The translations under genes were made by a program, and so were the position numbers. Of a stretch of 64,000 nt of DNA, positions 2,599 to 46,209 are shown piece after piece. Positions within the stretch are counted from its first letter, which is position 1, and the number at the start of each line of letters is the position of its first letter. The notes beneath the pieces were generated by a model. It saw only the letters and a list, made by a program, of their open reading frames with translations. It ran no database searches and was not told the origin of the DNA. Where the stretch lies: NCBI GenBank assembly GCA_036261135.1, contig DATALJ010000108.1, positions 15,971-79,970 of the forward strand, read 5' to 3'. This stretch comes from Bacteroidales bacterium (GTDB lineage Bacteria; Bacteroidota; Bacteroidia; Bacteroidales; JAAUTT01).

Positions 2599-3705
2599 TT
2601 AGGGAGTCTCTTTTTTCACGCGGGGTTTTGGAGTGTCTACTACGGGCATATCGTCGCCTAACAAATATCCCCAGGGTTTCAGCTGCTCAATATGCTCAAA
2701 AATAAGTTTCACAATGGCAGTTAGAGGTATGGATAAAAACATACCAGGAATTCCCCACAATGCCGAAAAAGCGATAACTACAAATATGGATACGAGTGCA
2801 TTTATGCGAACCTGAGAAGCTACAATACGAGGAACAATTATATTATTATCGATAAACTGAACAACAATGTAAACACCCATTACCAGCAAAGCATACCACA
2901 AGGAAGGCTTAGTTGCAACTGCAACCAGCATGGGCAACGCTGCAGCAATCCATGCACCCACATATGGAATTAGATTCAGGAATGCTCCCAAAACACCGAA
3001 AAAAATAGCATAATCGATACCAAGAATAAGCAGACCTGTCGTAAACAGGATTGCAATAATTCCGGTTTCCATCATTAAGCCCACTAAATATCGCTGAATA
3101 AGCATTTTAATGTCTGAAATTATCCCATGTACCTCAACTCGACGGTCAGCTCCGAATAAGCGGCTAAAAAATTCGAGAACCAACGGGTGATAGAACAAAA
3201 TCATAAAAATGTAGACAGGAATTAAAAGCAAGAGTATTAAGCCACTGCCAACACCAATTATTGTCTTTCCAATAAAGGCACTGCTCGTATTCAGCATTTC
3301 ACCCCGTGTTTTTTCTACCCAGTTATTTATCTTTTTCTCGCTTATATCAAAGTGTCCGGAAGCATATGTGGTTGCCTGGTTAACAACATCGGCCAGTTTA
3401 TCAATTAGCTTTGGAACCGATTCGCTTAACATTCCGGTTTTGGAAAACAAGAACAAGGCAATACCTGCGAAAACCAAAATAGCCATGGTAATTGTAAGTA
3501 CAATAGCAAAAACCCGGTTCATGCGCCACTGTATTAATTTATTTACTACCGGATGGAGCAAGCTGGCAGCAATAGCGGCAAAAATCAATGGCAGAATTAT
3601 GCCTTGAGCTAAGTACAATATGTAAACAAAGGCATACAAACCAATTAAAATGATCGATGCCTTTGCATAAAACGGAAGTTTTATTTCTTTACCATTGTTA
3701 TTCAC
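2599..3705 (-). CDS. AI-2E family transporter (PerM/UPF0118)
   Basis: Polytopic membrane protein with a C-terminal ...ALWGIPGMFLSIPLTAIVKLIFEHIE typical of the AI-2E family. The ORF extends to 3786 but would then overlap the upstream gene. The GTG at 3705 (giving MNNNGKEIKLPFYAK...) is proposed as the start and is uncertain. Confidence 0.75.
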   Translation of the reverse strand: MNNNGKEIKLPFYAKASIILIGLYAFVYILYLAQGIILPLIFAAIAASLLHPVVNKLIQWRMNRVFAIVLTITMAILVFAGIALFLFSKTGMLSESVPKLIDKLADVVNQATTYASGHFDISEKKINNWVEKTRGEMLNTSSAFIGKTIIGVGSGLILLLLIPVYIFMILFYHPLVLEFFSRLFGADRRVEVHGIISDIKMLIQRYLVGLMMETGIIAILFTTGLLILGIDYAIFFGVLGAFLNLIPYVGAWIAAALPMLVAVATKPSLWYALLVMGVYIVVQFIDNNIIVPRIVASQVRINALVSIFVVIAFSALWGIPGMFLSIPLTAIVKLIFEHIEQLKPWGYLLGDDMPVVDTPKPRVKKETP

Positions 3706-3736
3706 AAGGATGATGATTTGAGAAACATTGTACCAA

Positions 3737-4159
3737 CTAATTTGGGGATGGTTCAAAAATGGCAGTAGAAACAGTAAGCAATACAACGCTTTCGTCGATA
3801 GCAGCCAGACAATACTTCACATTTTCGTGTAATGTAAGCACTTGTCCACGTTCAAGCATAACCGTTTCCTTACTTGTTCTGAACTTCAATTTCCCCTGAA
3901 CGACCTGAAATGTAACTGAAGCACTCGATTGAAAGGATTCAATTTCCACGTTCTTTTTCATTGTTGTGAGAACAAGCTGCCGATCCGGTTTTTTCAACAG
4001 TATCATTGAATTCAGTCCTTTTCTCCTCGCTTTTGGAGAGTCGTTCCTTAACTTTTCAATGAGCAGTGGCAAATCAGATGTAGATAACAGAGAATCGTAA
4101 ACCGAATAGCCCTTCTTTAGCGAAGGTTTGGGTTCTAGCACGTCAGTTTCCATATGCAA
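3737..4159 (-). CDS. hypothetical protein, cupin-like fold
   Basis: 140 aa. The C-terminal half (VTFQVVQGKLKFRTSKETVMLERGQVLTLHENVKYCLAAIDESVVLLTV) reads like a cupin beta-barrel. No metal-binding His motif was seen. Confidence 0.4.
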   Translation of the reverse strand: MHMETDVLEPKPSLKKGYSVYDSLLSTSDLPLLIEKLRNDSPKARRKGLNSMILLKKPDRQLVLTTMKKNVEIESFQSSASVTFQVVQGKLKFRTSKETVMLERGQVLTLHENVKYCLAAIDESVVLLTVSTAIFEPSPN

Positions 4160-4192
4160 ATCTGGTTTTATATGAATTTAATCGTTCTTCCG

Positions 4193-4450
4193 CTAGGACA
4201 TTGCTCGTTTTGCAGCTTTAATTTTCTCGCTGGCAAATCGTGTAGCTTCTTCCTTAGCCATGTCAATCTTTTCGGAGATATCATCTTTCAAATCGCCGAT
4301 GGATTCTTTTATGTTCTCGGCATACGCTTCACCTTTTTTAATGATTCGGCGCCGGGTGCTCGATCCTTTTGCAGGAGCAAACAATACTCCCAATAAGGCT
4401 CCTACTGCTAAACCAGCTAATACGCTGGCTACAACTTTTCCTCCATTCAT
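4193..4450 (-). CDS. YtxH domain-containing protein
   Basis: N-terminal TM helix VVASVLAGLAVGALLGVLFAPAKGSSTRR followed by a charged helical tail. This is the typical YtxH general-stress protein layout. Confidence 0.75.
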   Translation of the reverse strand: MNGGKVVASVLAGLAVGALLGVLFAPAKGSSTRRRIIKKGEAYAENIKESIGDLKDDISEKIDMAKEEATRFASEKIKAAKRAMS

Positions 4451-4473
4451 AATCGTATGTTTTAAGGTTTATA

Positions 4474-4629
4474 CTAAATATCCCGTCGTCCGGAAATAAG
4501 ACGTAACAAAACAGCTATAACTGCTATTACCAGAAGAATGTGAATAATGCTTCCGGCATGAAAGCCGAACAAACCAATAAGCCATGCAATGACTAGTATT
4601 ACGGCAATAATGTATAGAAGATTTCCCAT
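4474..4629 (-). CDS. lmo0937-family small membrane protein (51 aa, below the ORF-track cutoff)
   Basis: Own translation gives MGNLLYIIAVILVIAWLIGLFGFHAGSIIHILLVIAVIAVLLRLISGRRDI*. Two TM helices and the GxxIHILLVIAxIxxxLRxIxGRR ending resemble the lmo0937 family. It lies 23 nt upstream of ytxH on the same strand. Confidence 0.65.
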   Translation of the reverse strand: MGNLLYIIAVILVIAWLIGLFGFHAGSIIHILLVIAVIAVLLRLISGRRDI

Positions 4630-4845
4630 AATTGTTGAGTTTTAATGATTAAACAAATGCTAATACTTTGATTACTGTTTTACTTTAAGTAGAACTTAAT
4701 GACGGGTAAAATCAATAATTTACATTACAAAGGTGGAACTCTTTCAAATAATGTGCGTTACAAAACTTTTATTATTAATTATAACATTCACACATTTCAC
4801 AACAAATGACGCGTTTTATTAAACAAAATGATTTTTCAAGAGATT

Positions 4846-4985
4846 TGTCATTCCGGCGAAGGCTTATAGCCGTCAATCTAAGCGCGCGTTGAATTGCCGT
4901 TGACTTTAGTCAAGGGCTTGTAATTATTAAAATAATAAGGCTTTAGCCGAAATTATTTAAAGTTTGGCTAAAGCCAGGTTGACCC
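4846..4985. repeat. REP/MITE-like structured repeat, long form, truncated copy (left terminus only)
   Basis: Starts with TGTCATTCCGGCGAAGGC. It shares a ~110-nt core with 16857-17025, including GTTGAATTGCCGTTGACTTTAGTCAA and the hairpin GGCTTTAGCC-17nt-GGCTAAAGCC. No matching right terminus. Confidence 0.7.
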
Positions 4986-5030
4986 ACTTATTACTTACCA
5001 TCTAAAGCAGGTGGCAATTCATATCAGCTA

Positions 5031-5441
5031 CTATCCTTCCTTCGGTAAGGCGCTCATGTCCATGTACACGACCTCCCATTGATGGCCGTCCAGATCGGCA
5101 AAGCTGTGTCCGTAAATCCAGCCATGATCTTCAGGATCGCGGTAAATGAGTCCTCCTGCATTCTGTGCTTTCCGGACGAGTTCATCTACCTCGGACCTCG
5201 ATGCTGCATCAATTGCAATTATAACTTCGGTACTATCCTTCGCGCTACTAATGGGTTTGTTCGTAAATGTTTTAAAAAATGGCTCAGCCAGAAGCATGGC
5301 AAAAATATTATTGCCAATAACCATGCAAGCGCCATTCTCGTCGGTAAACTGGGGATTAAAGCTGAATCCCAGTTGTGTAAAGAAATCCATTGATTTTTGA
5401 AGATCCTTAACCGGAAGGTTTATAAAGATTTGTGTTGCCAT
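5031..5441 (-). CDS. VOC (glyoxalase/bleomycin-resistance/dioxygenase) family protein
   Basis: 136 aa with MATQIFINLPVKDLQKSMDFFTQLGF...DPEDHGWIYGHSFADLDGHQWEVVYMD, a typical VOC fold signature. Confidence 0.8.
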   Translation of the reverse strand: MATQIFINLPVKDLQKSMDFFTQLGFSFNPQFTDENGACMVIGNNIFAMLLAEPFFKTFTNKPISSAKDSTEVIIAIDAASRSEVDELVRKAQNAGGLIYRDPEDHGWIYGHSFADLDGHQWEVVYMDMSALPKEG

Positions 5442-5600
5442 AATATAGGGTTTAGGTGTTTACCTATATACAATTTTGGTTACCGTTTGTTAAAAGCATA
5501 CAATAAGTAACCGTTTAAATCAAATAGATAATTATAATTCAATCAATTACATTAATGAAAAAAAATAGTAAAAAAAAGAAACACTGTAAGAAATAATACG

Positions 5601-5625
5601 TATTTTTGCATACCGCTTGTGCGGT
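5601..5625 (+). promoter_or_regulatory. candidate -7 box (TATTTTTG) abutting a palindromic operator ACCGCTTGTGCGGT upstream of tetR
   Basis: TATTTTTG at 5601-5608 fits the Bacteroides-type TAnnTTTG -7 consensus. The 14-bp palindrome at 5612-5625 recurs at 6267-6280. Confidence 0.45.
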
Positions 5626-5643
5626 TTTTTAAGATTAACACAA

Positions 5644-6240
5644 ATGAAAGATACAAAAGACATTATCCTGAAAACAGCCTACGATATGTTCTTATACAGT
5701 AACTACGAGGCTGTAACCATACGCAATATTATTAAAGCTACAGGTCTCACCAAAGGCGCAATCTATCATTATTACGAAAGCAAAGAAGAACTTTTCAAGG
5801 CTGTTGTTGATAAATATATGCTCGAAAACCTTGAGGATAGCGATGTAACTTATGATAAGCTTAAAGACATAATTCAACATACCATAGATACAATTAAAGG
5901 AAAAACCAATGGAATGCTAATAGAAAGCGGATCTTCGCAAATCATTCTGCCAATTAATTATATCTCGCTTATGGTTTCTGCATATCGTTACTACCCTGAT
6001 TATGAAAAAATTGGAAGAACATTTTTTAAGCGAAAAATGGGAAAATGGGAACAAACCATTAAAACAGCTATAGAAAAAGGAGAAATTCGCCAGGACACAG
6101 ATATAAGAGCTACTGTGGCTACATTTATGCAAGTAAGCACTGGAATTGTAGCTAATATGATGATGGGTGGTTCAATTACCTATGCACTTAATATGCTCGA
6201 ACGCCAATTTTGGGAACTATATAAAAACATTAAAAAGTAA
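5644..6240 (+). CDS. TetR/AcrR family transcriptional regulator
   Basis: N-terminal HTH ILKTAYDMFLYSNYEAVTIRNIIKATGLTKGAIYHYYESKEELF. The start was moved to the ATG at 5644 because the 5617 start lies inside the operator/promoter. Confidence 0.85.
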   Translation: MKDTKDIILKTAYDMFLYSNYEAVTIRNIIKATGLTKGAIYHYYESKEELFKAVVDKYMLENLEDSDVTYDKLKDIIQHTIDTIKGKTNGMLIESGSSQIILPINYISLMVSAYRYYPDYEKIGRTFFKRKMGKWEQTIKTAIEKGEIRQDTDIRATVATFMQVSTGIVANMMMGGSITYALNMLERQFWELYKNIKK

Positions 6241-6263
6241 ACAATATTTTTTTTGTCCAAAAA

Positions 6264-6284
6264 CATACCGCCTGTGCGGTTTTA
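6264..6284 (+). promoter_or_regulatory. second copy of the palindromic operator candidate (CATACCGCCTGTGCGGTTTT), upstream of the TolC-like gene
   Basis: ACCGCCTGTGCGGT at 6267-6280. The flanks CAT...TTTT are shared with the 5609-5629 copy. Confidence 0.45.
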
Positions 6285-6313
6285 TAAAAACAAATTGCAA
6301 TTATAATAACCAT

Positions 6314-7720
6314 ATGAAAATCAAAACAATCGTCATTTATTCTGTACTAGGTTTAAGTTTGGTTTGCACCCAGTTATCGGCGCAAACCAAACTTCCGGAT
6401 CTTATCTCCTACTCCCTGGAACATAGTCGGGATATTAAAAAAGCTGAGTTGCAGCACAAAGAAGCCTCCTATTTATACAAGGAAGTTCGAGGGAACGGCC
6501 TTCCACAAATAGAAGCAACCGCAAGTTATAGTAAGATGATGCTTCCTGAAATTGAGATACCTGGCGGTGCCGGAGATCGATTGGGAGGCATGCTGGACAT
6601 GATAATTAACGAAAACGTAAGCGCCGATACCAAGCAGGCGTTGAAAGACCAGCTTACCGGATCGCTGAACGGACTTTCCGGCTTGGATGCTTTATACACC
6701 GCCAGTGCTGGTATACAAGTTACACAGCTTATCTACAGCCAATCGTACTGGACTGGTCTGAAAACAGCAAAGAAAACAAAGGAACTGTATGCTCTCCTGA
6801 AAACAAAAACAGAAGAGGACGTGATAGCCGAAGTTGCCTCAGGTTATTATCAAGCAGGCTCTTTGATGCTGCAACTGCAAACGATTAATAAATCATTGGA
6901 CAACCTGAAAGAAATCCATCGCATTGCTGAGCTGAGCTACAAAAACGACTTAACAAAAGAAACCAATGTGAACCGATTAAAAGTTAGCATTTCGAACTTG
7001 CAGGTAACCCGACAAACCATACAAAATGGCATTACCATACAGTTGAATTACCTGAAAGCGCTTGCAGGTATGCCTTCCGACACGCTGATTGCTATAGATA
7101 CAACCGCGATGATCACTGATTTTGTAGCAAGCAGGAACGACGCTTCTTTCAGCGTAAATAATGTTCCCTCCTTCCAGGTTCTATTGAAACAAAATGAGGT
7201 GTACGGTCAACAAATTAAAAGTAGTCAGGCCAAGTATTATCCCACACTTGCAGCATTCGGACAGTTCAACTTCTCATCATATAGTACAACAGGAAGTATC
7301 GACAGGCTCAGTAACATGAATACCATAGGATTGAACTTATCGGTACCCATTTTCACTTCGGGCGTAAACAGTTCGAAGGTTAAACAAGCCAAACTCAAGC
7401 AGGCCCAATTGCAGGAAGACATCCTGAAAACCCAGGACCTGCTCACTGTGAATTACAACAACGCATACCTCGAATATCAGACATCGCGCGACATGCTGGC
7501 TGCACAAAAAGAAAACCGCGAGCTTGCTCAAAAAGTATATAATCAAACCTCGTTGCAATATCAGGAAGGTATGGCATCTATGGCCGACCTTCTTAATGTG
7601 AATTCGGACTTCCTGCAAGCCGATAATTCATACAACCAACAGGTTCTGAAATGCAAAACATCCGAAATCAATATGCTAAAGGCTTCGGGTAATCTTAAAT
7701 CATTAGTAAACAATAAATAA
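6314..7720 (+). CDS. TolC-family outer-membrane efflux protein
   Basis: Signal peptide MKIKTIVIYSVLGLSLVCTQLSAQ beginning at the ATG at 6314. Two repeated coiled-coil/barrel halves typical of OMFs. First gene of the efflux operon. Confidence 0.85.
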   Translation: MKIKTIVIYSVLGLSLVCTQLSAQTKLPDLISYSLEHSRDIKKAELQHKEASYLYKEVRGNGLPQIEATASYSKMMLPEIEIPGGAGDRLGGMLDMIINENVSADTKQALKDQLTGSLNGLSGLDALYTASAGIQVTQLIYSQSYWTGLKTAKKTKELYALLKTKTEEDVIAEVASGYYQAGSLMLQLQTINKSLDNLKEIHRIAELSYKNDLTKETNVNRLKVSISNLQVTRQTIQNGITIQLNYLKALAGMPSDTLIAIDTTAMITDFVASRNDASFSVNNVPSFQVLLKQNEVYGQQIKSSQAKYYPTLAAFGQFNFSSYSTTGSIDRLSNMNTIGLNLSVPIFTSGVNSSKVKQAKLKQAQLQEDILKTQDLLTVNYNNAYLEYQTSRDMLAAQKENRELAQKVYNQTSLQYQEGMASMADLLNVNSDFLQADNSYNQQVLKCKTSEINMLKASGNLKSLVNNK

Positions 7721-35832: not shown

Positions 35833-38697
35833 TCAGTATTTATTAATCTTAGCGAGAAGTTCTTCTCTCTTGATGGGTTTTGTTATATAGTCGACAAAAC
35901 CGCTCTTCATCAAATGTTCTTTTTCGTCGGATAGCACATAGGCCGTTTGAGCAATTATGGGCAGATTGGGTCGAAGCCCTTTGATGATGCGCATTGCCGT
36001 TTGTCCGTCCATTTCAGGCATTTTTATATCCATCAAAACGAGATCAATTCTGGCGCTTCTCTTGCATATTTCTACCGCTTCGAATCCATTTCTGGCATAC
36101 AGTAATGTAATATTCTTACCCGAAAGAATCTCTGCGATTAACTGATAATTATAATCTTCATCCTCGGCGATTAAAATAGTTCTGTGCCGCTCAACCGTTT
36201 TTTGCACATCTCTCGATTCTTGATTTTCCGTAGAAATAACCTCTTTATAAGGTATCGTAAATAAGAACTCTGCACCTTGACCAAATGTTGATTCCACCCA
36301 TATTTTACCCCCCAATAACTGTACGTAGGCCTTGCAGATTGACAAACCAAGCCCTGTTCCTCCATACTTTTTGTTTATAGAGACATCGGCCTGCGCAAAG
36401 CGCTCAAAAATAAACTCCTGATGCTCAGGCTTAATACCTATTCCGGTATCTTTAACATAAAACTCGAGGAATTCACCTTTACGAACGTAGCCAAAATCAA
36501 TAGTTCCACTATGTGTAAACCTTAATGAATTACTGATAAGATTAGACAATATCTGGTTTAGCTTGGTTGTATCGGTGAAAATTTCAGCATTTTCATTACT
36601 TAATGGATGTGAAACCGAAAGTAAAAGCCTTTTTTCGGTAGCTTTCGAATTAAAAATATACTGCAAACTATCACACAACTTATTAACATTAACTACAGTG
36701 TAATTCGCAACCTCCTGGCCAGTTTGGATGCGGGCCACCGTTAATATATCGTTTACAATAGAGAGCAACTGGTTACTGCTATTTATTATAATGGATGAAT
36801 AATTCTGTAACTTTTCAGGTGTAATGCCTGCATCAGTCAACAATTCAGAAAAACCAACAATGGCATTAAGTGGAGTGCGAATTTCGTGCGACATATTCTG
36901 AAGGAACGCATCTTTGAGCTTATCTGATTTCTCAGCACGCTCCAAAGCCAACATCAATGATTGCTCGGCCTTTTTTCGATCGGTAATATCCAGTGTAAAT
37001 CCGGCCAGCATAGGCTTCATACCTTCAATCTCTATGGGGAACTTAATGGTTGTGAAATACCTGCCATTAAATTCTTCGTCAACCTCCACCAGTTGGCCTT
37101 CTGTTAAAATCCGTTTATCATCTTCGACCATATTCTTTGCCAAATCGGACGGAAACAGGTCAAACATGGTTTTCCCAAGTATTTCAGAAAGCGGAAGACC
37201 TATCATCTTTTCATAATTGCGGCTCAGATGAATGGCTTTGATATCATGGTCTTTGAAGAAAATATAAACCGGGCTGAATTCCATCAGGGACTGAAAAACA
37301 ATATCTTTCTCGTGAAGCAGATTTTCCTGTTTCCTGAATTCGGTAATATCCTGAATGGTTCCAAAAACAACGTGATTAGCGTCATCGTATGCTGCAACCG
37401 ATCGTATCCAAAGGATTTCTTCGGTATTTGGTTTCTTAATCTTAAATTCAACATCGTACGGTTCACCGTTCTTAACAAGCGCAAGTATAGCTAAATCAAT
37501 CATTGAACGGTATTCAGGCAATGTCAATTCCTGAATCTTACTTGCAGGCCAGCATTCGCCTTCCATCCCGTATATTTGCTGGGCGCCTAAAGAGGCATAA
37601 ATTAGTCCATCGTTAAGATGCATCTCCCAATTACCTGTTTTTGAGATAAATTCGGCACGTTTTAACCGGGCGGAACCCTGCTCAATCTGGTTTAACACGG
37701 CGCGCTCATTTTTGCGCTGCTGCAATACGAGTAAAATACCGATGCCTGCTATCGATAACAAAATAAGAAAAGCTACAACCAGCACAGTTACCCCTGCACG
37801 AAAACGTAATTCCGAAAAAATCTCAGCCTTATCTACTTTAGTTACAATAAACCAATTGGTTCCTTCTATGTGCCTTACATCACTAAGTACCTCCACATTA
37901 CGGTAATCAATGCCTTCGAATTGTCCTTCCCTTCCAAGAATAGCCTGCACTGCCGGAGATGACAGTTTTTTAACAGAAACAGCAAGTGAAAAAGCAGTAT
38001 TTGACTTGTTTCGCATTTCGTTGACAAATAGCACACTATCTCCGTTACGCCGTAATATTGCTACTTCTGATGACTTGCTTGGAATAGGTAAATCATTAAC
38101 CAAAGGATAAAAATAATTCGCCGGATCTACCAAAAATACAAGCGCAGCAACCACCTTATCATTTCTGTTAATAATAGGAGAAATAATTGGCAAATGAATG
38201 TTGTGGGTTGCAGGATTAATGTAGAAATCAGAAAAACAAATCGTCCGTTTAATAAATACAGAATCAATATATTTTGACAAAATGCTGTCTGCATTGGGTT
38301 GGATTGAATCTGTTGATCCCAAATACAATTTATCGGGCGTTGCAATAAAAACTGATTCGAAACCACGCAGTTCTTTAATTAATTTATTCCTTCGGATTAT
38401 TTCAACTTCAAGCTTTTTGTCCCTGGTTTTTATTAGTTTTTCAAGCGCATCAACATACAAAGGGCTTGAAGAAAAGTGCACAGCGTCGGCCAACCGCTCT
38501 TTCTTCCATTCCAATATCTGATCAATTTTAAAATCGGTGATCGTTTTAAGATAAAGGTATTTTTCCTTTCTAATCCGGTAGGCTTCCTCCTTATAGTAAT
38601 AATAACCACCCAGAATCAGCAAAAAACTTAATACCACAATGAACAGATAGATATATTTCTGCCATGTGTTTTTGAAAAAGGCTTTAGCTCTGCTCAT
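35833..38697 (-). CDS. hybrid sensor histidine kinase/response regulator (Cache-like periplasmic domain, 2 PAS, HisKA, HATPase, REC)
   Basis: TM1 YIYLFIVVLSFLLILGGYYYY, a ~270-aa periplasmic domain and TM2 VTVLVVAFLILLSIAGIGILLVL. H-box FLQNMSHEIRTPLNAI, G-box GTGLGLSICKAYV and a receiver domain ILIAEDEDYN...DLVLMDIKMPEMDG. Confidence 0.9.
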   Translation of the reverse strand: MSRAKAFFKNTWQKYIYLFIVVLSFLLILGGYYYYKEEAYRIRKEKYLYLKTITDFKIDQILEWKKERLADAVHFSSSPLYVDALEKLIKTRDKKLEVEIIRRNKLIKELRGFESVFIATPDKLYLGSTDSIQPNADSILSKYIDSVFIKRTICFSDFYINPATHNIHLPIISPIINRNDKVVAALVFLVDPANYFYPLVNDLPIPSKSSEVAILRRNGDSVLFVNEMRNKSNTAFSLAVSVKKLSSPAVQAILGREGQFEGIDYRNVEVLSDVRHIEGTNWFIVTKVDKAEIFSELRFRAGVTVLVVAFLILLSIAGIGILLVLQQRKNERAVLNQIEQGSARLKRAEFISKTGNWEMHLNDGLIYASLGAQQIYGMEGECWPASKIQELTLPEYRSMIDLAILALVKNGEPYDVEFKIKKPNTEEILWIRSVAAYDDANHVVFGTIQDITEFRKQENLLHEKDIVFQSLMEFSPVYIFFKDHDIKAIHLSRNYEKMIGLPLSEILGKTMFDLFPSDLAKNMVEDDKRILTEGQLVEVDEEFNGRYFTTIKFPIEIEGMKPMLAGFTLDITDRKKAEQSLMLALERAEKSDKLKDAFLQNMSHEIRTPLNAIVGFSELLTDAGITPEKLQNYSSIIINSSNQLLSIVNDILTVARIQTGQEVANYTVVNVNKLCDSLQYIFNSKATEKRLLLSVSHPLSNENAEIFTDTTKLNQILSNLISNSLRFTHSGTIDFGYVRKGEFLEFYVKDTGIGIKPEHQEFIFERFAQADVSINKKYGGTGLGLSICKAYVQLLGGKIWVESTFGQGAEFLFTIPYKEVISTENQESRDVQKTVERHRTILIAEDEDYNYQLIAEILSGKNITLLYARNGFEAVEICKRSARIDLVLMDIKMPEMDGQTAMRIIKGLRPNLPIIAQTAYVLSDEKEHLMKSGFVDYITKPIKREELLAKINKY

Positions 38698-38842
38698 TTC
38701 AAATTGAAAATAAAAGGGGAATGTATGTTTTAAATATACACAACTGTTTATTAATAAACAAGTGGTTATAGGCAGTATTTATTTAAACAAGGCCAAGAAG
38801 ATATACTCAATAAACCTCCATTCTTTCAATCAAAAAAAATAT

Positions 38843-38850
38843 TACTTTTG
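38843..38850 (+). promoter_or_regulatory. candidate Bacteroides-type -7 box TACTTTTG
   Basis: Matches TAnnTTTG, 15 nt upstream of the ATG at 38865. No clear -33 TTTG was seen. Confidence 0.4.
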
Positions 38851-38864
38851 ATCCGATATAGATC

Positions 38865-39176
38865 ATGAAAATAATAGTAGCCATATTATCCGTTTACACC
38901 TTATTCCTAACAGCAATGCCATGCGTTGATGTCGTAAAGGATCGTATTGGCCATGCAACAGAGCATAGTACATCGTCAGACAACCACCATATGCCTGGTG
39001 ACGACCATTGTTCGCCCTTCTGCTCTTGCCAGTGCTGCGCTACACCAGTTGTTTTTATGGATTATACGGTTCAATTTGACTGTTTTCCTTTTGTTCAGAA
39101 ACTCCTTTCGGGATATTCCCCATCGTACCTTTCAATCACGCATATTGCCATCTGGCAGCCCCCAAAAACCGCTTAA
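38865..39176 (+). CDS. DUF6660-like Cys/His-rich small protein
   Basis: N-terminal hydrophobic helix MKIIVAILSVYTLFLTAMPCVD, then HATEHSTSSDNHHMPGDDHCSPFCSCQCC. As I recall, this pattern occurs in small proteins that precede czcA in Bacteroidota. Confidence 0.6.
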   Translation: MKIIVAILSVYTLFLTAMPCVDVVKDRIGHATEHSTSSDNHHMPGDDHCSPFCSCQCCATPVVFMDYTVQFDCFPFVQKLLSGYSPSYLSITHIAIWQPPKTA

Positions 39177-39316
39177 GAAATCTGTTTGAATTACGGAATT
39201 GAGATTGCATGTAATCTTCGTCGATTAACATGTAGTTTTTGTGTGTTATTCTGCATTGCAGGACATTCACCTTTTCTATGCCTATTCATTACTCCTTATT
39301 TATAATTCAAAAACAC

Positions 39317-42300
39317 ATGATTGAACGTATTATTCATTTTTCGATAAAGAATAAATTTATTGTTGGCTTGTTTGTTGTGGCTTTAATTAGCTGGGGGACT
39401 TATTCGCTTACGCGACTGCCTATTGATGCCATACCGGATATTACCAACAACCAGATACAGGTTATTTCGCTGGCTCCCTCGCTGGCAACACAAGAAATAG
39501 AAAGCTTTATAACTGCTCCAATTGAAGTGGCTGTAGCAAATATCCCCGATATTATTGAGCTTCGGTCCATCTCGCGGCTTGGATTGTCGGTTGTAACGGT
39601 AGTTTTTAAAGATGGTGTAGATGTATACTGGGCGAGGCAACAGCTTAGTGAACGCCTGAAAGAAGCCGAAGAAGCAATTCCCGAAGGCCTCGCTAGAATA
39701 GAGCTAGCTCCCGTTTCTACTGGTTTGGGTGAAATTTATCAATACCGGCTGGCGGTAAAAAAGGGATTTGAAGAGAAATACTCGGCAATGGACCTGCGCA
39801 CCTTTCAGGACTGGATAGTTCGCCGTGAAATGTTAGGTACACCAGGCATAGCTGATATTAATAGTTATGGAGGCTATGTAAAACAGTACGAAGTAGCCGT
39901 TAACCCCGAAAGACTGAGAGGGATGGACCTTACACTAAATGATATTTTCGAAGCCCTCGAAAAAAATAATGAAAATACAGGTAGTGCCTATATCGACAAG
40001 AAGCCCACTGCCTATTTCATTCGAGGCATCGGCCTGGTGAAGAATCTCGGAGACATTGAGAAAATAGTGGTAAAATCCAATGCCTCTGGCCTTCCTGTTT
40101 TAATACGCGATGTTGCAACCGTTCAATTCGGCAATGCTACAAGATATGGAGCACTGGTTATTGATACCACCGAAGCTGTAGGCGGTGTTGTAATGATGCT
40201 GAAAGGCGCCAACGCCCACGAAGTAATAAAAAACGTTGAAAAAAGAATAGAGTCCATCCAGAAATCGCTTCCAGAGGGGGTTATCATAGAACCATTCCTC
40301 AACCGGTCAGACCTGGTTGACCGTTCCATTGGTACAGTTACACGCAACTTAATAGAAGGTGCTTTAATTGTCATTTTCATATTGGTATTAATGCTTGGAA
40401 ACTTTAGGGCCGGGTTAGTGGTAGCATCGGTTATTCCACTTTCCATGCTATTTGCCATATCCATGATGCACATCTTCGGTGTTTCAGGTAACCTGATGAG
40501 TTTAGGAGCAATCGACTTTGGGTTGATAGTGGACGGAGCGGTCATCATTGTGGAAAGTGTTGTTCACCGCATATTTATGAGCAAGCACCACCATCCCGGC
40601 GTTATAAGGCTCACTCAGCAACAAATGGATGAGAATGTATTTGAATCGGCCCGGCGCATGATGAGTTCTGCAACCTTCGGACAAATAATCATTCTTATTG
40701 TATATCTGCCCATTATGGCCCTGGTAGGTATCGAAGGTAAGATGTTCAGGCCTATGGCGCAGGTTGTTGTTTTTGCATTGATAGGAGCAGCTATCCTTTC
40801 ACTTACCTATGTACCCATGGCTTCTGCATTATTCCTGAGCAAAAGCACGGAGCATAAAAGAAACTTCTCGGATAAGCTGATGGATGGGCTGCACAAGGCC
40901 TTCAATCCTCTTATTTTATTTGCTCTTCGCAGAAAGTTGCTTGTATCTGTTTCTGTAATAGTATTATTCATCCTCAGCTTATTTACATTTAGCAGGTTGG
41001 GCGGCGAATTCATACCGCAACTCGAAGAGGGCGACCTGGCAGCGGGCGTTATGACACTGCAGGGTGGTTCTCTTTCTTACACCATCGAAACCATAGAAAA
41101 GGCCAATAAGATACTGCTCGATAATTTCCCGGAAATAGAACATGCAGTTTGTAAAATCGGCGCCAGCGAAATACCTACCGACCCCACCCCAATGGAGACT
41201 GGCGATTACATTATTACGCTCAAGGATAAGCGTGAATGGACATCGGCTAAAACCCGCGAGGAACTTGTAGAAAAGATGGAAGAAAAACTCCTGGTGCTTG
41301 CTGGCGTTAAGTTTGAGTTCCAGCAACCCATACAAATGCGCTTCAATGAACTACTTTCGGGATCGAAACAGGATATTGCAGTTAAAATTTATGGCGACGA
41401 CCTCAATACGCTGGCCGAAAAAGCCGCAGAAGTTGAAAAATTGATACTTAACATTGAAGGTGTAGAGGACATTAATGTGGAAAAAGTAACCGGTCTGGCT
41501 CAGGTTCAGATCGATTATAACCGCGAAAAGCTGGCGCAGTATGGCTTATCTATTGATGATGTAAACCGGGTATTACGTGCCGCCTTTGCCGGAAGCCAGG
41601 CAGGTGTAGTTTTTGAGGAAGAGAAACGCTTTGCCCTTTTGGTGCGGCTTGATAAAGATTACCGCCAAAACCTGGAAGACATTAAAAATCTCACCGTTTC
41701 AGCGCCTAACAGCGTGCAGGTGCCATTTGAGCAGATCGCTTCTATCGAAATTAAGTCGGGTCCTGCCCAGGTGTCGCGCGAAGATACCAAACGCCGTATT
41801 ACCGTTGGGTTCAACGTACGAAACCGCGACATGCAAAGCGTTATAAAGGAAGTAAGCAGCCTTATTGATACACGCATTAATCTTCCAACGGGTTATTATG
41901 TTACCTACGGCGGACAATTCCAAAACCTTGAAGCTGCGAAAAATCGTCTCGCCATTGCTGTGCCGGTTGCGTTATTGCTCATCTTTGTTCTGTTGTTCTT
42001 CACATTTCATTCGGTAAAACAAACCTTGCTAATTTATACCGCAGTTCCGATGTCGGCTATAGGTGGTGTATTCGCCTTATGGATGAGAGATATGAACTTT
42101 TCAATATCTGCCGGTGTCGGTTTCATAGCATTATTCGGGGTTGCCGTACTCAATGGTATCGTACTTATATCTGAATTCAACCGTTTAGAAAAAGAAGGAG
42201 TTGCCGACATCACAGAGCGCGTACTTAAAGGACTTAAAACCCGCCTTCGACCTGTAATTATGACCGCAGGCGTTGCATCGTTAGGGTTTCTACCCATGGC

Positions 42301-43708
42301 TTTATCTACATCGGCGGGAGCCGAAGTGCAAAAACCGTTGGCAACCGTAGTTATTGGAGGGCTCATCTCCTCTACATTCCTTACGCTTGTTGTTTTGCCC
42401 ATATTTTACATTTTCTTTTCCACACATCATTTGCGACTTTCATTTATGCGGAAAAATTTAAGATCATTGTCAATTGTTGGTATCATTTCAACGTTAACGT
42501 TATACTCCAACACATTAAATGCACAGGAAACCAGGAAAATTGACCTTACCCAGGCCATACAAATGGCCTTGGACAGCAATTTAGCGGTACGCTCGGCATC
42601 CTATGCTGTAGATGCACAAAAGGCGTTGAAAGGAGCCTCATGGGACATTCCCAAAACCTCAATTGAAGCGGAATACGGGCAAATCAATTCGTACACAAAG
42701 GATAACAGCTTTACCATTTCGCAGACCTTTGCTTTCCCATCGGTGTATATAAACCAGAATAAACGGGCAAAAGCCAACATTAAAAGCAGTGAATGGGAAC
42801 TCAAAGCAAAACAGCTCGATATTGCTACGCAGGTAAAGCAGATATACTGGCAGTTAGCTTATTTATATTCCAAACAACACTTATATTCGTGGCAGGATAG
42901 CATGTACGATGGCCTCCTCAGGGCCGCTAAACTTAAGTCGGAGCTGGGAGAAAGTAATAAATTGGAGGTAATCACAGCTCGTTCGCAAAGCATGGAAGTT
43001 AAAAACCAATTACAGCAGGTAATATCAGATATTACCACATACAAACAAAAGCTGCAGCTGGCTTTAAATACAGATGCTCCTCTATCCATAATCGACACGG
43101 TATTACGACATGCAGGCGTGCATGAACCTCATGATACCGTAGCCTTAGCTTCAAACCCATCATTGGCGTATATGGAGCAACAAACGGCCATTGCGCATTT
43201 CGAGAAAAAGATAGAACGCAGCCAAATGATGCCGGACCTCACCATCGGATATTTCAGCCAAACCATGCAAGGCACACAGGAAGTAAATAGCATACCCCGT
43301 ACATTCAATACTGGTGATCGATTTACAGGCATCCAGGCTGGTATAGGCATTCCGTTGTGGTTTCGTTCGTACACATCGCGTTCTAAAGCAGCCCGGATTA
43401 AGGAGCAGGTAGCTCAAACCAATGCAAAATATTATGCAATGGAGCTTTCAGGAAATTACCGTGAATTACTTAATGAATATTCCAAGTATAACAGCAGCCT
43501 TGCATATTTCGAAAATCAGGCACTTCCTGAAGCCAACCTGATTATTGAGCAGATAACACGTATGTACAAAGCAGGCGCTATCGATTATTCCGACTATATC
43601 CTGAGTTTTGGCAGAGCCTTGGATATCAGACAGAATTACCTCGAAACGCTGAACGCATACAACCAAACCCTCATCAATATTGAATTTATTAACGGCAAAA
43701 TTTATTAA
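39317..43708 (+). CDS. CusA/CzcA-family heavy-metal efflux RND permease fused in frame to a TolC/CzcC-like outer-membrane factor
   Basis: Start at MIERIIHFSIKNKF (ATG 39317). The CzcA-like body covers 1043 codons. The frame then continues without a stop into MRKNLRSLSIVGIISTLTLYSNTLNAQ-ETRKIDLTQAIQMALDSNLAVR... (ATG 42446), a 420-aa OMF-like domain. Confidence 0.8.
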   Translation: MIERIIHFSIKNKFIVGLFVVALISWGTYSLTRLPIDAIPDITNNQIQVISLAPSLATQEIESFITAPIEVAVANIPDIIELRSISRLGLSVVTVVFKDGVDVYWARQQLSERLKEAEEAIPEGLARIELAPVSTGLGEIYQYRLAVKKGFEEKYSAMDLRTFQDWIVRREMLGTPGIADINSYGGYVKQYEVAVNPERLRGMDLTLNDIFEALEKNNENTGSAYIDKKPTAYFIRGIGLVKNLGDIEKIVVKSNASGLPVLIRDVATVQFGNATRYGALVIDTTEAVGGVVMMLKGANAHEVIKNVEKRIESIQKSLPEGVIIEPFLNRSDLVDRSIGTVTRNLIEGALIVIFILVLMLGNFRAGLVVASVIPLSMLFAISMMHIFGVSGNLMSLGAIDFGLIVDGAVIIVESVVHRIFMSKHHHPGVIRLTQQQMDENVFESARRMMSSATFGQIIILIVYLPIMALVGIEGKMFRPMAQVVVFALIGAAILSLTYVPMASALFLSKSTEHKRNFSDKLMDGLHKAFNPLILFALRRKLLVSVSVIVLFILSLFTFSRLGGEFIPQLEEGDLAAGVMTLQGGSLSYTIETIEKANKILLDNFPEIEHAVCKIGASEIPTDPTPMETGDYIITLKDKREWTSAKTREELVEKMEEKLLVLAGVKFEFQQPIQMRFNELLSGSKQDIAVKIYGDDLNTLAEKAAEVEKLILNIEGVEDINVEKVTGLAQVQIDYNREKLAQYGLSIDDVNRVLRAAFAGSQAGVVFEEEKRFALLVRLDKDYRQNLEDIKNLTVSAPNSVQVPFEQIASIEIKSGPAQVSREDTKRRITVGFNVRNRDMQSVIKEVSSLIDTRINLPTGYYVTYGGQFQNLEAAKNRLAIAVPVALLLIFVLLFFTFHSVKQTLLIYTAVPMSAIGGVFALWMRDMNFSISAGVGFIALFGVAVLNGIVLISEFNRLEKEGVADITERVLKGLKTRLRPVIMTAGVASLGFLPMALSTSAGAEVQKPLATVVIGGLISSTFLTLVVLPIFYIFFSTHHLRLSFMRKNLRSLSIVGIISTLTLYSNTLNAQETRKIDLTQAIQMALDSNLAVRSASYAVDAQKALKGASWDIPKTSIEAEYGQINSYTKDNSFTISQTFAFPSVYINQNKRAKANIKSSEWELKAKQLDIATQVKQIYWQLAYLYSKQHLYSWQDSMYDGLLRAAKLKSELGESNKLEVITARSQSMEVKNQLQQVISDITTYKQKLQLALNTDAPLSIIDTVLRHAGVHEPHDTVALASNPSLAYMEQQTAIAHFEKKIERSQMMPDLTIGYFSQTMQGTQEVNSIPRTFNTGDRFTGIQAGIGIPLWFRSYTSRSKAARIKEQVAQTNAKYYAMELSGNYRELLNEYSKYNSSLAYFENQALPEANLIIEQITRMYKAGAIDYSDYILSFGRALDIRQNYLETLNAYNQTLINIEFINGKIY

Positions 43709-43711
43709 AAC

Positions 43712-44899
43712 ATGACTAAATTTAAATATAGAACATTCCTTGTAATGATAATATCAGCATTATTGCTGACTGCAGCCTGCAATAGCGACAAAAAGGTGAA
43801 TGTACAGGAAATGGAAGAAGAAGTACTCCCTGAAGATATTGTGGAGCTTAGAGAAGATCAGATTAAGCTTGCGCAAATTGAGATGGGATCAGTAGAGTTA
43901 ATTTCACTGAAAGGATTACTAAAAGTAAACGGCATTGTTAGTGTTTCGCCTCAAAACCTTGCTACAGTTTGCATGCCAATGAACGGATTTATAAAAAGCA
44001 CATCGCTGCTTCCCGGAAACGCAGTAACGAAAGGGCAAACCTTAGCTATTCTCGAAAGTCCGGATTTTATTGAATTACAGCAAAGCTATCTCGAAACCAA
44101 AAACAAGTACGAATACGCCGAAGCTGAATACAAGCGGCATAGCGAGCTCTACCTCGATGAAGTATACTCGCAGAAGAACATGCAACAGGTTGCCTCCGAT
44201 TACAAAACACTTAAAGCCCAGTCAAATGCTTTAAAACAAAAACTCGCTCTTATCGGAATAAACGCTGCATCGCTTACCGAGGATAATATCAGCAGTTCCG
44301 TAGCGCTAATTTCGCCCATCACTGGGTATATAAAATCCATCAATGTGAATATCGGCAAATACGTTGCAACATCCGATGTGCTATTCGAAATTGTGAACAG
44401 CGACAAGCTTTCGCTGGAGCTAACCTTATTCGAAAAAGATGCAGAGAAGGTTTCGAAAGGTCAGAAAATCCGATTCTTCATAAACAATGAAACTGAACAA
44501 CACGAGGCCTCGATTTACCAGACAGGCAAATCGATTGACGCTGACAAAACCTATAAAGTTTATGCAAATGTTGTAGGAACCTGCAAAAATATATTACCTG
44601 GAATGTACGTGAACGCTGTTATAGAGACTTCAGGCAATAAGGTAACTGCCCTTCCGAGTGAGGCTATTGTTAGCTTCGATGACAAGGAATACATTTTCGT
44701 ATTCGATAAAAACAAGGAGGAAGATGGAAAGCCATTTACTGAATACCGCATGATTGAGGTGCATAAAGGGATTACCGATAACGGATACACCGAAATTATT
44801 CTGCCCGAAGGATTTGACGCAAATGGCAAAAAGGTAGTAATAAAAGGAGCCTACAATCTGTTATCCGCTAAAAAGAATGCCGGAGAAATGGCCTGCTAA
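43712..44899 (+). CDS. efflux RND periplasmic adaptor (CzcB/CusB-like lipoprotein)
   Basis: Lipobox LLLTAAC plus an MFP barrel-sandwich pattern (GNAVTKGQTLAILESPD...LISPITGYIKSINV). Starts 3 nt after the fusion gene. Confidence 0.85.
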   Translation: MTKFKYRTFLVMIISALLLTAACNSDKKVNVQEMEEEVLPEDIVELREDQIKLAQIEMGSVELISLKGLLKVNGIVSVSPQNLATVCMPMNGFIKSTSLLPGNAVTKGQTLAILESPDFIELQQSYLETKNKYEYAEAEYKRHSELYLDEVYSQKNMQQVASDYKTLKAQSNALKQKLALIGINAASLTEDNISSSVALISPITGYIKSINVNIGKYVATSDVLFEIVNSDKLSLELTLFEKDAEKVSKGQKIRFFINNETEQHEASIYQTGKSIDADKTYKVYANVVGTCKNILPGMYVNAVIETSGNKVTALPSEAIVSFDDKEYIFVFDKNKEEDGKPFTEYRMIEVHKGITDNGYTEIILPEGFDANGKKVVIKGAYNLLSAKKNAGEMAC

Positions 44900-44934
44900 C
44901 CGAAACAAGAATTTATGTATTTTGAAGCAACAAT

Positions 44935-44970
44935 AATCCGATTCGTTGATACCAATTGACGAATCGGATT
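44935..44970 (+). terminator. stem-loop downstream of the czc-like operon
   Basis: AATCCGATTCG-14nt-CGAATCGGATT is a perfect 11-bp stem. Confidence 0.55.
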
Positions 44971-45006
44971 GTTATCTTTATGTTCTAAATACTAAAAGAC
45001 TTTAAC

Positions 45007-46209
45007 GTGACCTATTACATTATAATAATTCTCTGCTTTATAGTATTAATCGCCTATCTTTTCGAAATCACCACCAAATTCACCAAAATACCGGGCGTTA
45101 TTTTATTAATGGCTTTAGGACTAACACTCAGGCACCTCGCCACTTTCTATGGCTTTCGAATGCCCGATTTTTCTATTCTTCTCCCAATCATGGGCACGCT
45201 GGGGCTTATTTTGATTGTTTTGGAAGGCAGTTTGGATTTAACCATAAGTACACACAAAAAACAATTACTCAAAACATCCTTTGCATCTGCGTTTTTCCTG
45301 TTTCTGATTTTTGTAACAGTTGTCGCCACTATTCTCTACTACTTCCTGGGCGTTCCTTTAAAAACAACGCTGATCAATGCCATTCCAATTGGTATTATAA
45401 GCAGTGCAGTAGCTATTCCATCGGCATTAAACCTTGAAACCAGCGACAGAGAATTTGTAATTTACGAAAGCTCTGTTTCGGATATCATTGGCATTTTGTT
45501 GTTTGACTTTGTGTTATATAATCAGTACTCTATTGGAGGTGGATTGATGTTTTTTTTACTTCAGATTGTGGTAAGTATTATAATTTCAGTGATCATCAGT
45601 GCAGGGTTAGCTTACATGCTCCATAAAATCAACCATCATGTAAAGTATATTATTATCTTAACAGCAGTGATTCTGGTGTTCATAGTTGCCAAAATGATTC
45701 ATTGGCCTTCGCTTATTGTTGTCCTGATTTTCGGACTAATTCTGAACAACAATCACCTTTTCCGGAACCTTATTATAACCAGAAGCATCAATTTTAATGA
45801 GTTTAATACGAATCTGTCTTCCTTCAAACAAATTACAGGCGAACTTACCTTTCTGGTCCGGTCTTTTTTCTTCCTTATATTTGGCTTCTATACGCCGGTT
45901 GAGGAGCTACTAAACCTTCAGAGCCTTGCCATTTCGGCATCTATATACCTGCTTATCCTTTTATTACGAGGCCTTTTCTTCCGGTTCATCATCAAAAAAT
46001 CGTTGGTTCCGCTCCTTTACTTTGCTCCACGAGGTCTTATTACCATTCTTCTGTTTTTAAGCATCCCTGCGCACTATAAACTGCCTTTTATCAACGAAGG
46101 AGTTGTTACCCAAACCATTTTCATCTCTATTATTATGATGACTGTAGGAACGATGCTTTCCTCCACGAGTAAAGAGCCTGCATTTAAGGAGAATTCAACT
46201 AATTCATAA
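45007..46209 (+). CDS. cation:proton antiporter family membrane protein (GTG start)
   Basis: 400-aa polytopic membrane protein with a Na+/H+-exchanger-like N-terminal region. No soluble domain. Confidence 0.5.
   Translation: MTYYIIIILCFIVLIAYLFEITTKFTKIPGVILLMALGLTLRHLATFYGFRMPDFSILLPIMGTLGLILIVLEGSLDLTISTHKKQLLKTSFASAFFLFLIFVTVVATILYYFLGVPLKTTLINAIPIGIISSAVAIPSALNLETSDREFVIYESSVSDIIGILLFDFVLYNQYSIGGGLMFFLLQIVVSIIISVIISAGLAYMLHKINHHVKYIIILTAVILVFIVAKMIHWPSLIVVLIFGLILNNNHLFRNLIITRSINFNEFNTNLSSFKQITGELTFLVRSFFFLIFGFYTPVEELLNLQSLAISASIYLLILLLRGLFFRFIIKKSLVPLLYFAPRGLITILLFLSIPAHYKLPFINEGVVTQTIFISIIMMTVGTMLSSTSKEPAFKENSTNS

Follow-up and report, generated by a model that had tools for sequence, protein, structure and literature searches.

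A single gene from a Bacteroidales bacterium appears to encode two components of a predicted heavy-metal efflux pump, one belonging in the inner and the other in the outer membrane, as one polypeptide. The gene (positions 39317 to 43708, plus strand) lies in a stretch of 64,000 nucleotides, hereafter the window (assembly GCA_036261135.1, contig DATALJ010000108.1, positions 15,971 to 79,970). Its product joins a permease of the resistance-nodulation-division (RND) type to an outer-membrane factor (OMF) of the TolC family through a segment that has the character of a Sec signal peptide. We propose, with a probability of roughly three in four, that the fused gene codes for a polyprotein from which two components of a tripartite pump would be derived, signal peptidase I cutting between Ala1069 and Gln1070. 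Judged from sequence comparisons, the fusion is not an artefact and is conserved in hundreds of related species. The gene is laid out as follows.

39317 to 43708, plus strand: the fused open reading frame (ORF), comprising RND permease, internal signal peptide and OMF (1463 codons, stop TAA at 43706-43708).
39317 to 42418, plus strand: CusA/CzcA-type heavy-metal RND permease part, amino acids (aa) 1-1034, through the twelfth transmembrane helix (TM12), assigned by Pfam ACR_tran, TIGR00914 and solved relatives.
42419 to 42466, plus strand: basic, putatively cytoplasmic linker corresponding to a signal-peptide n-region, S1035-S1050 STHHLRLSFMRKNLRS, including Met1044, assigned by charge counts.
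42467 to 42505, plus strand: hydrophobic core corresponding to an h-region, a candidate 13th transmembrane (TM) segment, L1051-Y1063 LSIVGIISTLTLY, assigned by hydropathy and an AlphaFold2 (AF2) model.
42506 to 42526, plus strand: c-region with the predicted signal peptidase I site SNTLNA/Q (the slash marks the cut), assigned by the conserved -3/-1/+1 motif.
42524 to 43705, plus strand: predicted mature TolC-family OMF, Q1070-Y1463, 394 aa, assigned by OEP repeats, AF2 and Foldseek.

The open frame extends from 39239 to 43708, and both the ORF listing and the translation gave no stop between the permease and channel parts. ATG 39317 was taken as the start because the N-terminus of its product, MIERIIHFSIKNKF, agrees with that of the homologue consensus. 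The 1463-aa protein is thus divided into the permease (aa 1-1034), the signal-peptide-like segment (aa 1035-1069) and the TolC-family factor (aa 1070-1463), and the translated junction reads ...VVLPIFYIFFSTHHLRLSF-MRKNLRSLSIVGIISTLTLYSNTLNAQETRKIDLTQAIQMAL..., with an ATG at 42446-42448. A first-pass annotation of the window had described an in-frame fusion of a complete CzcA/CusA-like permease to its OMF, and all of this stood: the frame is single and open over 1463 codons, the junction letters were identical on re-reading, ATG 42446 included, and the permease is covered nearly from end to end by its family model and solved relatives, as described below. In the whole protein, Pfam detected two OEP repeats in addition to ACR_tran, which covers aa 5-1034 (E = 6e-282), and both halves are complete as far as these comparisons tell.

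With the NCBIfam model of the CusA/CzcA family, TIGR00914, the permease part scored 1157.8 bits (cutoff 701.45), aa 1-1037 matching model positions 1-1038 of 1051. The best solved relative was ZneA (4k0e; E = 7e-199, query 1-1037 on chain 1-1018), followed by CusA (E = 3.5e-184), which aligned along query aa 1-1040. No RND chain with a C-terminal extension was found in our search of the Protein Data Bank (PDB), in which all solved chains end at query residue ~1033-1040. RND pumps have an established topology of 12 TM helices with both termini in the cytoplasm, and by homology to CusA and ZneA the permease examined here is likely to have the same 12 helices, with two large loops in the periplasm and its C-terminus in the cytoplasm. 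Its TM4 reads DFGLIVDGAVIIVES, which matches the charged motif DFGxxxDGAxxxVEN save for the last residue (Ser, not Asn); this motif was reportedly described by Nies in 2003 for the heavy-metal efflux (HME) pumps of divalent cations. The metal substrate is not assignable from the TM4 motif alone, and the role of the fused pump in heavy-metal efflux is predicted from its family membership.

The OMF part was recognised by the Pfam model OEP (PF02321) in two stretches; the E-value was 9e-32 when the whole protein was searched and 4e-34 for the C-terminal 420 aa by themselves. A phmmer search of the PDB with this part gave no match, and a further sequence search gave only E ~0.3. As the sequence searches of the PDB were too weak, we turned to structure prediction combined with Foldseek. 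The AF2 model built for aa 960-1463 had a predicted local distance difference test (pLDDT) score of 80-97 across the OMF part (aa 1069-1463), and displayed two pairs of beta-strands (model residues 156-179 and 348-385) as well as long helical hairpins with helices of 35-70 residues. Foldseek matched the model to CmeC, SilC, CusC, TolC, VceC and OprM over 403-415 columns with a probability of 1.0, a TM-score (normalised to the target) of 0.64-0.77 and an identity in the structural alignments of 12-17%. Based on the model, the OMF part comprises an entire TolC-family protomer, strands of the beta-barrel included, and is not a remnant. By analogy to its solved relatives, the released OMF is predicted to reside in the outer membrane as a trimer.

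The fused architecture is widespread. In a search of 5.8 billion proteins, a 100% identical protein (P0001) was found in a Bacteroidales metagenome-assembled genome. The 120 best matches, drawn from NCBI, JGI, ENA and Logan assemblies, are 76-79% identical to the query save P0009 at 90%, and all carry both Pfam domains; their lengths are 1456-1477 aa, with the exception of P0009, which is truncated N-terminally to 1306 aa. We also compared aa 901-1463 with one representative of each 50%-identity cluster of 15 billion proteins, and obtained 1073 hits at E <= 1e-30, the best 150 of which align unbroken through the junction unless a contig end truncates them; fused representatives reach down to 32% identity, and full-length members are 1422-1463 aa long. 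One of the divergent fused representatives, P0266 (1446 aa), stands for a cluster of 1147 members including WP_204396616.1 (RefSeq) of Phocaeicola plebeius. This cluster constitutes a gut-Bacteroidaceae branch of the fused proteins, and its junction reads ...AASASA/VTPTPQ, an AxA site without Gln at +1.

At the genome level, one genome per species (185,579 species) was scanned with two peptide patterns of the OMF part, and relatives were found in 335 genome stretches. All locus counts given here refer to the best 80 of the 335. In all of these 80 loci, each from a distinct species, the frame is open across the junction, and no split relative with a stop at the junction was found among them. 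An alignment with orthologues had been put forward by the first-pass annotation as a check on the fusion; in the 80 loci the fusion is conserved, with neither a stop codon nor a frameshift at the junction. The loci derive from Bacteroidales, Prolixibacteraceae, Paludibacter, Lentimicrobiaceae, Saprospiraceae, Muribaculaceae and one bin labelled Candidatus Cloacimonadota (L036); the remaining 79 belong to Bacteroidota, save L058, which is labelled only 'metagenome'. The gene in L036 is cut by a contig end, and either mis-binning or horizontal transfer may account for this locus. Two proteins were considered as split relatives and rejected: P0371 is cut by a contig end, and the break in P0377, on a contig of 2.75 Mb, lies ~300 aa 5' of the junction, inside the RND part. 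Many database entries are 552, 538, 482 or 470 aa long, start in the last RND helices and are located on contigs of 1.5-3 kb; they look like gene calls shortened to conserved internal Met residues, not a separate short form. A homologue search with a divergent alignment of 11 sequences yielded mostly contig-truncated fragments and little taxonomic gain.

What is conserved at the junction is the character of a signal peptide, not a sequence. Among 120 close homologues, the letters at the junction vary freely, and the order is constant: a basic stretch, a hydrophobic run, x-x-A-Q, and then a conserved start of the mature protein, I/V-N/D-L-x-Q-A-[IV]-Q-M-A-L. We quantified these properties in 139 divergent representatives of 50%-identity clusters that span the junction. 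Their n-region contains on average 4.3 Lys and Arg versus 0.9 Asp and Glu, a charge pattern in keeping with the positive-inside rule if the segment follows a cytoplasmic C-terminus and is oriented N-in/C-out. A hydrophobic window of 11 residues was detected in 139 of 139, with a mean Kyte-Doolittle value of 2.70 and a minimum of 1.95, and the uncharged stretch up to the -1 position covers 16-21 residues where the c-region is free of charge. In the AF2 model of the window protein, a helix was predicted with low confidence at model residues 89-105, which correspond to aa 1048-1064.

The putative cleavage site is equally regular. A site composed of Ala, Gly, Ser, Thr or Cys followed by Gln, and hence Gln at +1, was found in 136 of the 139 representatives. 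The residue before the conserved Gln (-1) is Ala in 107, Ser in 16 and Gly in 12, that is, one of the three in 135/136, and position -3 is Ala, Ser, Leu, Thr, Val or Ile in 114/136. In the window protein the cut is predicted between A1069 (42521-42523) and Q1070 (42524-42526), in the context SNTLNA/QETRK. Taken together, these statistics describe a junction built like a cleavable Sec signal peptide that ends in a site for signal peptidase I. The first-pass annotation had likewise proposed a Sec signal peptide with an AxA-like site; the signal-peptide character stood, and the cut is now placed one residue before the AQ/E that was proposed. Processing of the lipoprotein type was rejected: the OMF is devoid of a lipobox Cys and no Cys occurs at +1 in the window or the representatives, which is why the predicted site is regarded as one for signal peptidase I.

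The position of the Gln is also consistent with what has been described for protein export in this phylum. Most substrates of signal peptidase I in Bacteroidetes expose an N-terminal Gln, which is then cyclised to pyroglutamate (the Q-rule; PMC5837995), and both Q1070 and the Gln at +1 in the relatives fit this rule, as far as sequence can tell. For instance, the stand-alone outer-membrane efflux protein Tanf_07615 of Tannerella forsythia bears a pyroglutamate N-terminus verified by mass spectrometry, QEVLTLDQCR, after ...PFCAMA/Q (PMC5837995 supplement). Tanf_07615 resembles the fused protein in both the ...A/Q site and the mature N-terminus (QEVLTLDQC... versus QETRKIDLTQA...). Nevertheless, its signal peptide is located at the true N-terminus, while that of the fused protein follows 1035 residues into the chain, usually with no start codon ahead of it. 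In the same supplement, the pyroglutamate peptide of Tanf_07885 is preceded by '???...RNIRFTLSALVLFFMPFSSRLIA/Q', with the start of the signal peptide unassigned; this protein could have a mis-annotated start or represent another internal signal peptide in T. forsythia.

Other explanations for the long frame need to be weighed against the polyprotein. The stop codon between two neighbouring genes could have been lost by an error of sequencing or assembly, or by a recent mutation that left a pseudogene. The window does come from a metagenome-assembled genome, and in four genomes (L008, L030, L068 and L082 at 3266-7659) the RND part is broken 440-680 aa upstream of the OMF part. These breaks, however, are far upstream of the junction, which is open in all four, and some of them are probably indel errors because the contigs of two of them (L008 and L030) have 'tig' names of the kind usual in long-read assemblies, although real pseudogenes among the broken loci are possible. 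With the junction open in all 80 species-level genomes, in the 120 best matches and in representatives down to 32% identity, an artefact can be regarded as effectively refuted by the comparisons. Alternatively, the protein might persist as an uncleaved single chain, in which a permanent 13th TM helix tethers an OMF-like domain to the RND protein. Cleavage is deduced from sequence, and the uncharged stretch, typically of 16-21 residues, could span a membrane. We nevertheless consider a tethered domain very unlikely. The -1/-3/+1 pattern seen in ~97% of the divergent members points to recognition by a peptidase, not to the needs of an anchor, and the OMF is predicted to be a complete TolC-family protomer equipped with its beta-barrel strands. 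Moreover, there are only ~5 residues between the hydrophobic segment and the first conserved element of the OMF. In solved channels of the TolC/CusC type, some 100 Angstrom separate the N-terminal region from the inner membrane (a general order of magnitude, not one measured on structures here), and therefore a tethered domain could not reach the outer membrane.

A further alternative, offered as such by the first-pass annotation, is that the OMF is made with a signal peptide of its own by internal initiation at ATG 42446, the read-through fusion being a by-product or a second isoform. In the window this in-frame ATG stands exactly at the start of the n-region, and about a quarter to a third of the homologues have some Met in the stretch. 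The sequence directly 5' of 42446 (tcattt) does not share the A-richness of that before 39317, and no promoter motif of the form TAnnTTTG was found in the 1.1 kb 5' of the junction, although the latter is weak evidence only. Bacteroidota do not rely on Shine-Dalgarno sites, so the missing Shine-Dalgarno site is uninformative. The column of Met1044 is occupied by Lys or Arg in most close homologues; a Met between TM12 and the hydrophobic core is present in 29 of 119 close homologues (missing in 90) and in 42 of the 139 divergent representatives (none in 97, i.e., ~70%), a frequency close to chance for a stretch of 12-15 residues by a rough estimate made without a control. At the DNA level, 22 of 79 junctions contain an in-frame ATG and 41 contain some ATG, GTG or TTG, leaving 38 with none of these. 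These 38 still keep the signal-peptide-like segment and the cleavage motif, which would be useless if translation did not start upstream. As ATG 42446 is not conserved and 38 of the 79 junctions lack any start codon, internal initiation cannot be the general mechanism; there being no conserved start at the junction, the OMF with its export signal must in general come from the long chain, which would be made, and need processing, in any event. As an account of the family, we thus regard internal initiation as improbable.

Several points weigh against the polyprotein reading. Three of the 139 representatives (P0244, P0218 and P0266) do not possess the A/Q motif, and the assignment of the cleavage site rests on motif statistics computed in this analysis. 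The 80 loci are near relatives, with OMF parts 58-67% identical, and the scan that found them used the closer alignment instead of the divergent one of 11 sequences, which biases it to close relatives. In the nearest relative, P0009, as in the window gene, the basic stretch begins with a Met, and internal initiation could contribute in this particular lineage, although no other observation favours it. The supplement of the Q-rule study, which covers Porphyromonas gingivalis and T. forsythia, contains no internal pyroglutamate peptide from a CzcA-type protein (PMC5837995); in P. gingivalis czcA and tolC are separate genes (PMC10434189). More generally, no experimental record of cleavage was found for any member in the open-access literature, the Q-rule supplement or the PDB.

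If the fused protein is a polyprotein precursor, its maturation may proceed as follows. The permease part would insert into the inner membrane with 12 helices and its C-terminus in the cytoplasm, as in CusA and ZneA, and the following 35 residues would act as an internal Sec signal peptide. The basic stretch would remain cytoplasmic, the uncharged core of 13-19 residues would span the membrane N-in/C-out, and the last 394 residues would be threaded into the periplasm by Sec. Signal peptidase I would then cut behind Ala1069 (-3 Leu, -1 Ala), the exposed Gln1070 would probably be cyclised to pyroglutamate as in most signal peptidase I substrates of Bacteroidetes, and the freed TolC-family protein would assemble into the outer membrane through its assembly pathway. 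The pump would retain ~35 additional residues at its C-terminus, among them a short membrane segment. The fusion of proteins that reside in different membranes had been regarded as a topological paradox, which would be gone if the RND C-terminus is cytoplasmic, since the core would then insert N-in/C-out just like a signal peptide. The first-pass annotation had offered, as one way out, that the signal-like helix exports the OMF and that signal peptidase releases it, and this is supported by the n/h/c architecture, the -3/-1 site and the Gln in 135-136 of the 139 representatives. We infer the topology of the C-terminus, the export, the cleavage by signal peptidase I, the formation of pyroglutamate, the fate of the leftover segment and any selective advantage of the fusion from sequence comparisons.

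The subunit composition of the pump may offer such an advantage. Complexes of the CzcCBA type contain 3 RND, 6 adaptor and 3 OMF subunits, and the same is expected here. The fusion would fix the synthesis of pump and channel at 1:1, matching the 3:3 in the assembled pump, and the adaptor, needed at six copies, would be translated separately from the next gene. As for its origin, the fusion most likely arose by the loss of a stop codon between adjacent czcA and tolC genes; Bacteroides thetaiotaomicron has clusters in which czcA is directly followed by a TolC gene (PMC10434189).

A more far-reaching but doubtful reading is that the fusion does more than simplify expression. The pumps might be made obligatorily from a two-destination precursor, with the Sec-docked ribosome feeding each channel into the periplasm beside its own pump protomer, and the leftover segment serving as a functional 13th helix. 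Such a helix may pack against the TM domain of the pump, for example in the manner of the small protein AcrZ on AcrB. On this reading, the one-chain precursor might be an adaptation to the Shine-Dalgarno-independent translation of Bacteroidota, in which adjacent genes are only weakly coupled.

The fused gene is flanked by the other two genes of the cluster and a candidate promoter.

38843 to 38850, plus strand: candidate operon promoter TACTTTTG, a match to the Bacteroides-type -7 motif TAnnTTTG, from a motif scan.
38865 to 39176, plus strand: first gene of the cluster, encoding a small DUF6660 protein of 103 aa that is rich in Cys and His (Pfam PF20365, E = 9e-8).
43712 to 44899, plus strand: CzcB-like periplasmic adaptor of the membrane fusion protein (MFP) type, 395 aa (Pfam HlyD_D23, NCBIfam TIGR01730/TIGR00999).

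The adaptor gene begins with an ATG 3 nt past the TAA stop of the fused gene, and was found directly downstream of the latter in 78 of the 80 loci. Its product scored 123.9 bits with TIGR01730 (cutoff 94.9), and Pfam models of the CzcB family match the adaptors of the relatives. The adaptor begins with MTKFKYRTFLVMIISALLLTAAC (...LLLTAAC), which resembles a lipoprotein signal containing a lipobox Cys; the adaptor is therefore probably anchored by lipid, and the channel is not. DUF6660 was detected upstream of the fused gene by tblastn in 45/80 loci. The alignment of 46 copies revealed a strongly conserved pattern, in which a hydrophobic helix at the N-terminus closes with PCxD and is followed by D-x-CSPFC-x-C-x-CC and finally by WQPPK at the C-terminus, and the protein looks like a small, membrane-anchored, Cys-rich and possibly metal-binding partner of the pump. 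The order noted in the first-pass annotation, small Cys/His protein, A::C and then B, which differs from czcCBA, thus recurs in the relatives. TACTTTTG precedes the start codon of DUF6660 by 14 nt, a position suggestive of a single operon made up of DUF6660, the fused gene and the adaptor. TAnnTTTG, a motif reportedly defined by Bayley et al. in 2000, has two plus-strand matches in 38600-45100 (38843 and 41308) and 22 in the whole 64-kb window, so that such a match is weak evidence.

Two further genes are located nearby. Just downstream of the adaptor, 45007-46209 (plus strand) encodes a very hydrophobic protein of 400 aa without a Pfam match, and a homologue of this protein was found next to the pump in none of the 80 loci. 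Upstream, a divergently oriented gene (35833-38697, minus strand) encodes a hybrid sensor kinase of 954 aa with dCache, PAS, HisKA, HATPase and receiver domains. Its tblastn matches were detected in only 8/80 loci, mostly 26-50% identical, partial in length and on either strand, and the kinase is thus probably not a dedicated regulator of the pump.

The system shares with CzcCBA, CusCBA and ZneCBA of Proteobacteria an RND permease, a TolC-family factor and a CzcB-type adaptor encoded in one cluster. In contrast to these, the permease and the OMF are in one frame with an internal signal peptide, and the order C-B-A of CzcCBA is replaced by DUF6660, A::C and B. The OMF, moreover, is devoid of a lipobox Cys, and its sequence is very distant from those of the solved OMFs. 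Two proteins that are encoded separately elsewhere, for instance by the CzcA and TolC genes of B. thetaiotaomicron and P. gingivalis (PMC10434189), thus correspond to one ORF here. Fusion as such has a parallel in the RND superfamily, as SecD and SecF, usually separate partners, form one chain in Thermus thermophilus (PMC8277102). The two halves of the fused SecDF, however, stay joined in the same inner membrane and require no cleavage, whereas the partners fused here belong in two membranes.

The nearest mechanistic precedent that we know of is FbcH of Bradyrhizobium japonicum, whose precursor was reportedly shown by Thony-Meyer et al. in 1989 and 1991 to give rise to cytochromes b and c1 by cleavage at a signal peptide within the chain. 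In both cases a polytopic inner-membrane protein is followed by an internal signal-like segment and a downstream protein that is, or here would be, exported, and the two subunits are produced at 1:1. The analogy is limited in that both products of FbcH reside in the inner membrane and their cleavage was demonstrated, whereas here the second product would go to the outer membrane and cleavage is deduced.

To our knowledge, the components of tripartite pumps have always been described as separate gene products. Our searches of open-access full texts brought up no account of an RND-OMF fusion or polyprotein, although an earlier mention elsewhere is possible and the architecture is visible in public databases; neither a 2021 survey of tripartite pumps in Chemical Reviews nor a survey of outer-membrane protein fusions mentions such a fusion. 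The fused gene therefore appears to represent a conserved and apparently undescribed variant in the biogenesis of a well-known type of pump.

The remark in the first-pass annotation that CzcA entries of about 1,450 aa exist in Bacteroidota proved right, since proteins of ~1460 aa are annotated in databases as 'CusA/CzcA family transporter'. As they are annotated only by this name, their outer-membrane component goes uncounted, and the operons seem to be without an exit duct. For instance, the listed genes of the cluster BT3968-BT3972 of B. thetaiotaomicron comprise an adaptor and a CusA/CzcA transporter and no TolC gene, while other czc clusters of the species list one (PMC10434189). BT3969 may be a fused member with its channel part hidden by the annotation. 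As members occur in cultured human-gut Bacteroidaceae (Phocaeicola plebeius), the predicted cleavage is directly testable.

The fused protein is built from familiar parts, and we expect it to be surprising to specialists in efflux pumps and in protein export alike. If the polyprotein reading is correct, the family would be a rare bacterial case of polyprotein processing by signal peptidase, would have a built-in answer to the problem of subunit stoichiometry, and would provide a natural test case for an outer-membrane protein exported co-translationally behind a membrane protein of 12 helices. If the more tentative idea of an obligatory two-destination precursor also holds, this would, as far as we know, be the first case in bacteria of an envelope-spanning machine with inner- and outer-membrane subunits synthesised in a single chain.

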